A stretch of DNA of 64,000 nt from Gemmatimonadaceae bacterium (GTDB lineage Bacteria > Gemmatimonadota > Gemmatimonadetes > Gemmatimonadales > Gemmatimonadaceae), in the NCBI GenBank assembly GCA_016742275.1, contig JACVCD010000017.1, forward strand, positions 32,952-96,951, written 5' to 3'. The first letter of the stretch is position 1; the number at the start of each line of letters is the position of its first letter. The notes beneath the pieces are model-generated. The model searched no databases. It was not told the DNA's origin and was given only the letters and a program-made list of their open reading frames with translations. Positions 59,916-61,371 of this stretch are shown one piece after another. The translations under genes were made by a program, and so were the position numbers.

Positions 59916-59941
59916 GACTGACCCTACGGGAGGTGACGCAG

Positions 59942-60013
59942 ATGGAATTCATGGCCCAGCTCGTGAACGCGATGATGTCTTTCGTGTTGGCTGATCTGAA
60001 GACCTGGGGCTGA
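59942..60013 (+). CDS. Unannotated 23-aa peptide MEFMAQLVNAMMSFVLADLKTWG
   Basis: SD GGGAGGTGA just upstream, ATG 59942, tandem stops TGA-TAA, 32 nt before the HD-GYP gene. Confidence 0.7.
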   Translation: MEFMAQLVNAMMSFVLADLKTWG

Positions 60014-60045
60014 TAACAGCCTTGGTTGGCGGGGAACTCCTACGT

Positions 60046-61371
60046 ATGAAGACAAGCGTAATCGCCTATGTATATGCGATCGTTGCCGTTGCTGCGGCTG
60101 CGCTTGTTGGCACGTTTGTATCTTCTCCTGCAGTCGATTGGGGGCTCGCAGGCGGTGCCTTTGCTCTGACATTGGTTGCTTTCCTTGGCGCGATTTTCAA
60201 CTACCGCGTTCAGGGAAGCACATTTGGTGAGGTGAGTTTCATCCCGTACCTCACCGCGATCGTACTCTATCCGTCGTGGCTAACCATCGCTGTGGTAGGC
60301 GTTGGAGCGCTCGTTGCTGAGATAATCAAGCCGAAATCGGCGATTAAGCGTGCTTTCAATGTCGCGCAAATTGTACTTGCTAGCGCAGTAAGCGTATGGG
60401 TCTACCAAGCGCTTGGTGGAATCTCGCTGCAGGTTGCGAGCAGCTTCCATGCCACGCCGCACATCGCCGCGGTTGTTGTGTTCCTACTCGTGAACACATT
60501 TGCCGTCGCTGCCGCTATTGGCTTGGCAGAAGGAAAGAGCATCGTTAAGACGTGGTCCAAGGGCAATGCCGCTGGGCTGGTCTACGATGTTATCGCGATT
60601 CCAGTTGTGTACGCGTGTGCGCGCGCTTACGTCGATTGGGGCGCGGGCGGCGTTGTCGCGCTGTGTGCGATTGTGCTCGGAGTACGGTTCACGTACCAGT
60701 CAAAGCATCAACTGGAGACAACGAATCGCGAACTCCTTGAGCTCTTCGTGCAAACCGTTGAATTCCGCGATCCGTATACCTCCGGTCATTCTCAGCGCGT
60801 AAGCCGATTTTCGAGAATTATCGCTCAGGTCATAGGCTTACCCCAGAAAGAGATCGAACGGATCTCCACTGCCGCTCTTCTTCATGACGTCGGCAAGATC
60901 CATGAGATTTTTGCCCCGATCTTGATGAAGCCAGGCCGCCTCACTCCGGAGGAGCGTGCCATTATGGAGCTTCATCCGATCAAGTCGGCCGAACTCGTTG
61001 CTAAAATCTCGGATCTGCAGGACATTGTGCCAGCGGTTCGCCATCACCACGAGAATTGGGATGGTACGGGATATCCCGACCAGTTGAAGGGCAAGGATAT
61101 TCCTCTCGGATCCCGCATCATCATGTTTGCAGACACAATTGATGCGATGACGACGGATCGCCCATACCGTAAAGCTCTTACCGAAGTTGATGTTCGCGAT
61201 GAACTGAAAAAGTGGCGTGGAGCTCAGTTCGATCCCGATATCTGTGATGCGCTGCTGAACTCACCTGATTTTGGGCGACTCTTCGACAAGAATGACTCAG
61301 GTAACATCCAGTCGCTCACTCAGATTATCGATATCGTCCGTAAGCGAGTGCGTACGCCGGCCGTAGCCTAG
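60046..61371 (+). CDS. Membrane-bound HD-GYP phosphodiesterase with multi-TM (MASE-like) sensor domain
   Basis: About 7-8 hydrophobic segments incl. AFNVAQ; TSGHSQRV, LHDVGK, HHENWDGTGYP, FDP. Confidence 0.92.
   Translation: MKTSVIAYVYAIVAVAAAALVGTFVSSPAVDWGLAGGAFALTLVAFLGAIFNYRVQGSTFGEVSFIPYLTAIVLYPSWLTIAVVGVGALVAEIIKPKSAIKRAFNVAQIVLASAVSVWVYQALGGISLQVASSFHATPHIAAVVVFLLVNTFAVAAAIGLAEGKSIVKTWSKGNAAGLVYDVIAIPVVYACARAYVDWGAGGVVALCAIVLGVRFTYQSKHQLETTNRELLELFVQTVEFRDPYTSGHSQRVSRFSRIIAQVIGLPQKEIERISTAALLHDVGKIHEIFAPILMKPGRLTPEERAIMELHPIKSAELVAKISDLQDIVPAVRHHHENWDGTGYPDQLKGKDIPLGSRIIMFADTIDAMTTDRPYRKALTEVDVRDELKKWRGAQFDPDICDALLNSPDFGRLFDKNDSGNIQSLTQIIDIVRKRVRTPAVA

Follow-up and report, generated by a model that had tools for sequence, protein, structure and literature searches.

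Small membrane proteins that bind and tune a sensor or a transporter are known from the pairs MgrB-PhoQ, SafA-PhoQ, KdpF-KdpABC, AcrZ-AcrB, and MgtS-MgtA. A very short open reading frame (ORF) can also act through its own translation: in the ermC and ermB leaders, and in TnaC-tnaA, MifM-yidC2, and SecM-secA, a leader ORF controls a downstream start that is held in a helix. Short hydrophobic peptide pheromones encoded beside their receptors, such as SHP/Rgg and ComX/ComP, form another group; in ComX, a Trp residue is functionally central. The locus described here shares features with each of these groups. It lies in a 64,000-nucleotide (nt) stretch of Gemmatimonadaceae DNA (the window; all coordinates are in its numbering and on the + strand unless stated otherwise), where a 23-codon micro-ORF directly precedes a MASE9-HD-GYP gene. 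Both belong to an ancient module of four parts, namely a conserved gene of hypothetical product (gene X), a structured leader RNA, the micro-ORF, and the gene for a MASE9-HD-GYP cyclic di-GMP (c-di-GMP) phosphodiesterase. In the explanation that appears best, with a probability of about 0.5, translation of the micro-protein is gated by the RNA and opens the start of the receptor gene; once made, the micro-protein would work at the membrane, as a MASE9 partner or ligand. The two genes are laid out as follows:

59928-59936, + strand: Shine-Dalgarno (SD) sequence GGGAGGTGA of the micro-ORF, read directly, 5 nt 5' of its ATG
59942-60013, + strand: micro-ORF, 23 codons plus TGA (60011-60013), product MEFMAQLVNAMMSFVLADLKTWG
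60046-61371, + strand: MASE9-HD-GYP gene, 441 amino acids (aa), with Pfam MASE9 and HD_5 matches
about 60046-60720, + strand: MASE9 membrane domain of this gene
about 60742-61242, + strand: HD-GYP domain of this gene, with HD codons at 60883-60888 and GYP codons at 61069-61077

The TGA of the micro-ORF is directly abutted by TAA (60014-60016), and 32 nt separate the micro-ORF from the ATG of the receptor gene (60046). An earlier note on this DNA had described the SD sequence, the 23-codon ORF, the double stop, the 32-nt gap, and an HD-GYP domain with HD and GYP motifs, and direct reading together with Pfam searches confirmed all of these. The double stop, present in the window, is not kept across the loci compared below. 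The same note had contrasted host-like codons in the peptide gene with a low-GC receptor gene; this was wrong, as the GC fractions are 0.528 for the peptide ORF and 0.539 for the receptor gene, compared with 0.64 upstream.

Within its own genome the micro-ORF stands alone. The full 4.57-Mb sequence contains 137 ORFs of 14-35 codons with GGAGG and ATG, and this is the only one that encodes a hydrophobic product with W in final or penultimate position. No comparable ORF precedes three other HD-GYP paralogues of this genome. The peptide was not found in a collection of 15 billion predicted proteins, which indicates that the micro-ORF has never been called as a gene. The 23-codon frame is very probably a real, translated micro-protein gene.

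The receptor protein matches MASE9 (Pfam PF20972) at residues 61-195 with 26.3 bits, above the cut-off of 24.3, and a six-frame search gives 29.1 bits for PF20972 at the same gene. The match to HD_5 has an E-value of 9e-36. With HD at residues 280-281 and the motif HHHENWDGTGYP, in which GYP occupies 342-344, the protein is predicted to be an HD-GYP phosphodiesterase. Its N-terminal domain has hydrophobicity peaks consistent with a polytopic membrane domain. A profile of the MASE9 domain found orthologues in 165 of 301 Gemmatimonadota genomes, nearly always in single copy. MASE9 matches also occur in the control genomes of Thermotoga maritima and Thermus thermophilus. The domain was defined in bioRxiv 10.1101/2021.11.05.467447, where a ligand is proposed to bind inside the membrane and none is listed; none of the MASE-type domains discussed in that work has a known input. 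Thermotoga TM1467 and Streptomyces hdgA are the genes on which MASE9 was founded; the micro-ORF comparison that follows covers other loci, from Gemmatimonadota, Actinomycetota, and Bacillota.

All 26 order-level orthologous loci with enough upstream DNA have an SD sequence and an ORF of 22-28 codons, located 28-77 nt from the MASE9 gene. A micro-ORF was likewise present in 20 of 20 loci fetched from other orders and classes. A further 40 loci were then fetched, giving about 105 Gemmatimonadota loci in all, with 101 unique peptides. Every one of these loci with enough upstream DNA has the micro-ORF (14-35 aa, median 23), and an SD sequence of the form (A)AGGAGGTGA or GGGGGTGA is kept at the equivalent place in all of them. 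The check proposed in the earlier note, a search upstream of homologous membrane HD-GYP genes, was passed: all over Gemmatimonadota, as in two further phyla, SD sequences precede short ORFs whose products have W in last or next-to-last place. The micro-ORF/MASE9 unit is almost certainly a conserved module, and the comparison gives good support to the view that micro-peptide and MASE9 form a cognate genetic unit.

Some metagenome-assembled genomes seem to have no receptor gene. In these genomes a contig end falls within the leader or the micro-ORF, and the receptor looks absent because the contigs break there (G019:C67, G013:C236, G036:C88, G006:C246, G029:C96, G024:C43, G027:C13, G033:C555, G144:C114, G119:C23, and G098:C81). 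Near-identity of the stretch among co-occurring species, which would make the assembly graphs fork, is the likely cause of the breaks.

The peptides follow a common plan. Of the 101 unique peptides, 35 end in Trp and 56 have it as the penultimate residue (91/101 together); four residues before this Trp, 84 of 93 have Asp, Glu, or Gly. Across the loci, the N-terminal part combines hydrophobicity with moderate amphipathicity. In the window, a hydrophobic, amphipathic helix is followed by Asp18 and the tail LKTWG. The longest uncharged stretch of the window peptide has 15 residues (F3-A17), which is short for a classical membrane span and below the roughly 18 or more hydrophobic residues of a single transmembrane helix of the MgrB/SafA type. 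As in the MgrB/SafA group, a tiny hydrophobic protein is genetically tied to a polytopic membrane signalling protein, and action in the membrane is proposed. Unlike that group, which consists of single-pass proteins of 31-65 aa, this protein has 23 aa with some 15 uncharged residues, and its micro-ORF lies directly 5' of the presumed target, within a dedicated folded RNA. The target also differs, being a MASE9 c-di-GMP phosphodiesterase and not a histidine kinase or a pump, and there is no sequence relationship between the two groups.

The association extends beyond Gemmatimonadota. A plasmid collection was searched by tblastn for representatives in other phyla, and three HD-GYP matches extended into the membrane domain. 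All three genes have a hydrophobic micro-ORF upstream, encoding the following micro-proteins:

Nonomuraea: MFKVTVARLLTAVVLITPVIMLMGGVVPPGVSWT
Natranaerobius: MNKVVLILVTLLGVVLAGGASFTWGGGG
Subdoligranulum: MKKILFALASLCSLVLASGAFFCVR

No micro-ORF lies upstream of three HD-GYP genes whose N-terminal domain is not MASE9. In Nonomuraea (Actinomycetota), the micro-ORF occurs in 80 of 80 species (loci L138-L217), about 17-31 nt upstream of the MASE9 gene; its stop codon is always TGA, and its last sense codon is ACC or ATC. Five Bacillota-type loci have a micro-ORF, with tails of the form F[TKS]WG. In the three of these that come from metagenomes, gene X, the leader, the micro-ORF, MASE9, and DUF5317 are found together, and the peptides end in FTWGGG, FKWGW, and FSWGV. 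The Natranaerobius micro-ORF is unannotated in RefSeq. The design of these three metagenome tails is clearly akin to that of the window tail, LKTWG. The design seen across phyla is a hydrophobic helix, a Gly or acidic hinge, and x-[KT]-x-W-G; in the Actinomycetota and Bacillota peptides, the hydrophobic stretch is about 17-20 residues long.

A tail of this kind could also be an exported or processed signal, in which the N-terminal part serves as export sequence or anchor and the tail (DLKTWG here, SFTWGGGG and PPGVSWT elsewhere) is freed and sensed by MASE9, much as in SHP/Rgg or ComX/ComP. The strongest constraint indeed falls on the short tail, the gene adjoins that of the putative receptor, and the Actinomycetota and Bacillota versions resemble signal peptides, with K/R at the N-terminus, then a hydrophobic core, and then a stretch rich in Gly or small residues that leads into the tail. 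The pheromone systems likewise have a tiny, often unannotated hydrophobic gene by the receptor, a conserved acidic residue, and a short, active-looking C-terminal segment. However, those systems (and AIP/AgrC) have linked genes for export, processing, or modification, whereas the conserved neighbourhood of this module contains no exporter, peptidase, or modification gene in any phylum examined. Moreover, the host is a diderm, and the receptor is a membrane phosphodiesterase whose external loops are very short and poorly conserved. The Gemmatimonas peptide begins M-E-F, with no positive N-region, and the versions of 14-16 aa are too short for Sec-type signals. An exported signal is improbable on this evidence. 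Of the peptide-receptor pair suggested in the earlier note, the part that stands is a genetic unit under protein-level selection; secretion of the peptide as a pheromone finds no counterpart among the conserved neighbours.

Evidence for selection on the protein comes from several lineages. Differences among Gemmatimonas micro-ORFs fall on codon positions 1, 2, and 3 in the ratio 878:581:1139, the third position being the most variable and the second the least. In most Gemmatimonas pairs, the nonsynonymous rate (dN) of the peptide is lower than that of the MASE9 domain, but synonymous sites are saturated and the ratio to the synonymous rate (dN/dS) is uninformative; close relatives and Nonomuraea were used in its place. 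In Nonomuraea, the tail P-P-G-V-S-W-T is invariant as amino acids and is encoded by 3-4 synonymous codons per residue. Because the tail is fixed while its codons vary, the Nonomuraea micro-ORF is under purifying selection at the protein level. In the close relatives of the window (L134 and L135), the micro-ORF (59942-60010) is identical at 69 of 69 nt, whereas the receptor gene is 75% identical in DNA and 91% in protein. In this comparison, identity is about 90% for the C-domain of gene X and about 55% for the downstream STAND gene. The neighbouring genes at the locus have very different synonymous rates.

The micro-ORF is enclosed in a self-closing leader RNA of about 220 nt (59817-60035), which the earlier note overlooked together with the conserved gene X upstream. 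The 190 nt 5' of the micro-ORF are conserved above the level of the flanking genes. The leader is composed of these elements:

59817-59832, + strand: 5' arm of the panhandle, TCCCCGTCAACCGAAG, pairing with 60020-60035 at 15 of 16 positions
59834-59842, + strand: GAGCGG box 1, GAGCGGAGC, near-invariant in the genus
59844-59851, + strand: GAGCGG box 2, GAGCGGGC, near-invariant in the genus, pairing with codons 5-7 of the micro-ORF in folds
59866-59875, + strand: GAGCGG box 3, GAGCGGAGCC, near-invariant in the genus, pairing with the SD region GGGAGGUGACGC in folds
59887-59919, + strand: leader hairpin, with inner stem ATTCC (59896-59900) / GGAAT (59905-59909), loop GAGC, and an outer stem
60020-60035, + strand: 3' arm of the panhandle, CCTTGGTTGGCGGGGA, starting 6 nt after the stop codon and ending 10 nt before the receptor ATG

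The fold of the window RNA has a z-score of -2.75, and the panhandle, the SD-masking helix, and the hairpin are present in both the minimum free energy and the centroid structures. A panhandle of at least 11 bp occurs in 87% of 97 Gemmatimonadota loci, compared with 33% when the spacers are shuffled, and is built from 94 distinct pairs of arms. In the Bacillota-type loci, perfect inverted repeats of 15-17 nt flank the micro-ORF unit and are followed by a U tract. The leader hairpin has two-sided changes at 8 of 12 pairs; none of 500 shuffles matched this covariation, and slid controls scored far lower. Elsewhere in the phylum and in Bacillota, its loop reads (A/U)UAGCGG(A), on 78 distinct stems among the 97. 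Boxes of the form AGCG(G/A)AGCGG recur 5' of the hairpin in other classes and in the Bacillota-type leaders. In other lineages, the SD is masked by different complementary pairs: GAGCGUC/GACGCUC, GGUCUCCC/GGGAGACC, and GCUUUCCU/AGGAAAGU. A long-range SD helix of at least 7 bp is present in 61% of loci versus 38% after shuffling, a modest excess, with clear lineage-specific complementary pairs.

A covariance model of the leader (R1) found one copy per genome, always at the MASE9 locus, and Rfam 15 gave no relevant match in the window (E up to 5) or in the leaders of other classes and phyla (E up to 1). Like the GEMM-I and GEMM-II c-di-GMP riboswitches, it is a conserved, structured 5' leader that sequesters an SD before the gene of a c-di-GMP enzyme; it has no Rfam match to them, and its architecture of panhandle, GAGCGG boxes, and UAGCGG-loop hairpin differs. 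Two other interpretations of the leader were rejected. Display of the spacer G-run as an SD in a hairpin loop was discarded, since local stems around it do not exceed those of shuffled sequences (3.8 against 3.5 bp) and the G-run is explained by the 3' arm of the panhandle. A repeat family was also discarded, as GAGCGGAGC occurs 69 times in the genome, near the chance level, and its sole cluster is at this locus.

The geometry of this RNA raises the possibility of a purely cis-acting leader ORF, for which translation (or the nascent chain) alone matters, melts the panhandle, and leaves a released peptide with no function. Across the loci, 0-19 nt separate the stop codon from the 3' arm of the panhandle, which covers the region before the receptor start, lies within reach of a ribosome ending on the micro-ORF, and may control translation. 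Masking of the micro-ORF SD by conserved pairing and the strong conservation of synonymous sites in the micro-ORF point the same way. So does the peak of conservation at the C-terminus (W and position -4), as in nascent-chain regulators like TnaC. The Nonomuraea tail PPGVSWT includes PPG, a strong EF-P-dependent pausing motif. The locus thus resembles the known leader ORFs in its short, strongly initiated upstream ORF, in a helix on the downstream start that a terminating ribosome could melt, and in conserved C-terminal residues. However, a hydrophobic or amphipathic helix is not needed for coupling, yet it is the most widely conserved feature of the micro-protein (101 peptides, three phyla), and both this conservation across phyla and the proposed gating of the ORF through another structure, the SD-masking one, set the locus apart from the known systems. 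Nor does it follow an antibiotic or amino-acid logic. The Bacillota-type ORF stands apart, well upstream: 48-135 nt, with a terminator-like panhandle and the U tract, lie between it and the receptor gene, which is preceded by an SD of its own. Finally, peptides of 14-35 aa would lie wholly within the exit tunnel at termination, which speaks against force sensing of the MifM/SecM type. A purely cis-acting ORF is accordingly judged doubtful. The role of partner or ligand is favoured because the helix and the Trp tail are kept where the nucleotide sequence is not, and because, in the Bacillota-type loci, the ORF stands apart from a receptor gene equipped with an SD of its own.

The fold-back of the leader also recalls type I toxins. 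A toxin-like or otherwise independent membrane peptide, whose mRNA is shut by 5'-3' pairing and which sits next to the HD-GYP gene by descent only, would account for the small hydrophobic product, the sequestered SD, and a structure like that of hok-type mRNAs. Type I toxins are patchy in distribution, often multi-copy, and paired with an antisense RNA antitoxin, whereas this gene is in single copy and strictly syntenic with MASE9 in three phyla. There is also no evident antisense RNA gene. A scan of 58600-61600 revealed no sigma-70 promoter or intrinsic terminator of note and no promoter-like site on either strand, and no -24/-12 element was seen by eye. A toxin-like peptide is therefore very unlikely.

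The remaining part of the module, gene X, and the genes and sites around it are the following:

58746-59750, + strand: gene X, conserved hypothetical, longest ORF 334 aa, called as 307 aa from the ATG at 58827
59787-59805, + strand: palindrome TTCGTC-N7-GACGAA, just after the gene X stop codon
56827-58665: sigma-54 activator gene, upstream of gene X
61368-63986, minus strand: STAND/AAA_16-TPR gene, convergent with the HD-GYP gene

Gene X is directly 5' of the module in Gemmatimonadota (most loci, by tblastn) and in the Bacillota-type loci. Its N- and C-terminal domains are conserved, the latter highly, and are joined by a variable, low-complexity linker. No sequence match was found in Pfam, NCBIfam, or the PDB. 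The C-domain ends in ..SAVLAVLDATNRW in the window, and homologues ending in ..ATL(D/N)A(V/I)NR(R/K) lie 5' of the micro-ORF in Natranaerobius, Subdoligranulum, and the three metagenome loci; the Bacillota-type end is ..ATLNA(L/I)NRK. An AlphaFold2 (AF2) model of the C-domain (pLDDT 88) has a two-repeat beta-beta(-beta)-alpha fold. Foldseek matches to it are weak, with a TM-score of 0.5 for the LeuA/citramalate-synthase regulatory domain and about 0.3 for double-stranded RNA-binding domains. Protein X may bind the leader RNA or a small ligand. The arms of the palindrome are kept in the genus without compensatory changes, while its spacer is variable in the alignment. It resembles a site for a DNA-binding protein more than a stem in RNA, and is a candidate operator or hairpin.

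The conserved neighbours of the module are gene X, the MASE9-HD-GYP gene, and either a STAND ATPase gene (Gemmatimonas) or DUF5317 (Bacillota). In Gemmatimonas, the STAND gene is convergent with the HD-GYP gene, and the two share a stop-codon overlap, CTAG, at 61368-61371. In four Natranaerobius-type loci, a DUF5317 membrane-protein gene is directly 3' of the MASE9-HD-GYP gene (L128 1990-2497; L218 2493-3065; L219 1745-2290; L220 2456-3034). A plasmid of Deinococcus sp. KNUC1210 has AGAGCGAGCGG..ACTCC (L132 500-540) directly 5' of the annotated start of a membrane HD-GYP gene, which has no Pfam MASE9 match and in front of which no separate micro-ORF was seen. This element may represent the leader in degenerate or fused form. 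The influence on pilus and surface behaviour once proposed for the window peptide is not borne out by gene order, as the pil genes, some 25 kb distant, share no synteny with the module.

A lower-GC block (59900-63400) takes in the micro-ORF, the HD-GYP gene, and the STAND gene that converges on it. All 45 long loci, drawn from across the order, show a fall from 0.64-0.69 to 0.50-0.58 at the corresponding position. Because the drop is common to all of these loci, low GC is an old, maintained property of the locus, and recent horizontal transfer was rejected as its source.

These observations can be assembled into the following sequence of events. In the resting RNA, the panhandle, the SD-masking helix, and the hairpin would keep both start regions closed; the structure itself is conserved and covaries, and closure of the starts is what its fold predicts. 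The SD of the micro-ORF would be freed by a trigger; candidates are a ligand, protein X, and a shift in temperature or in the state of translation. Ribosomes ending on the micro-ORF would then melt the 3' arm, 10 nt before the receptor ATG, and the receptor would be made together with the micro-protein. From this geometry, translational coupling to the receptor is, on balance, just probable in the lineage of the window. The micro-protein would reach the membrane by its hydrophobic or amphipathic helix of about 15 residues, with the acidic/Gly-x-x-x-Trp tail at the interface, and may set HD-GYP activity as a MASE9 subunit or as a ligand within the membrane. A membrane role on MASE9 is inferred because of the linkage across phyla and the selection at the protein level. 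A physical partnership between micro-protein and MASE9 has roughly even odds on these grounds.

Several points weigh against this explanation. The uncharged stretch has a median of only 14 residues in the 101 peptides, and in certain clades the whole peptide, at 14-16 aa, is below the length that spans a bilayer. Translational coupling cannot be the universal mechanism, given the Bacillota-type spacing; coupling is not the whole story because the ORF there is a separate unit and the receptor has its own SD. The box columns that form the SD-masking helix are invariant in the lineage of the window and give no covariation support. Conservation of the micro-ORF also appears to be partly at the RNA level, because all 69 nt are identical where the receptor gene has diverged to 75%, and this conservation of synonymous sites fits pairing with the leader. 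The RNA architecture by itself could explain the need for a translated ORF at this place. With the RNA and gene X taken together, a cis-regulatory (coupling) role is at least as well evidenced as the ligand role.

With these points considered, the micro-protein remains the best available candidate for the input of the MASE9 sensor, as far as comparative data can indicate. It is tempting to go one step further and to speculate, tentatively, that the micro-protein or its freed x-[KT]-x-W-G tail is a self-made ligand of MASE9, and that the panhandle RNA is a new sensing RNA (a riboswitch or a target of protein X) that sets the amounts of ligand and receptor in a c-di-GMP feedback loop. If true, MASE9 would be the first of the MASE-type membrane sensors with an identified input. 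A full-text literature search found no paper connecting HD-GYP or MASE9 genes with small ORFs or with membrane proteins of small size, nor any on the micro-ORF/MASE9 module. The locus shows again that conserved genes of some 20 codons are missed by gene callers, and the same module adds an undescribed structured RNA found across phyla and an undescribed protein family, X. MASE-type domains front thousands of bacterial c-di-GMP enzymes, and the micro-gene provides a concrete and cheaply testable hypothesis for the input of MASE9.

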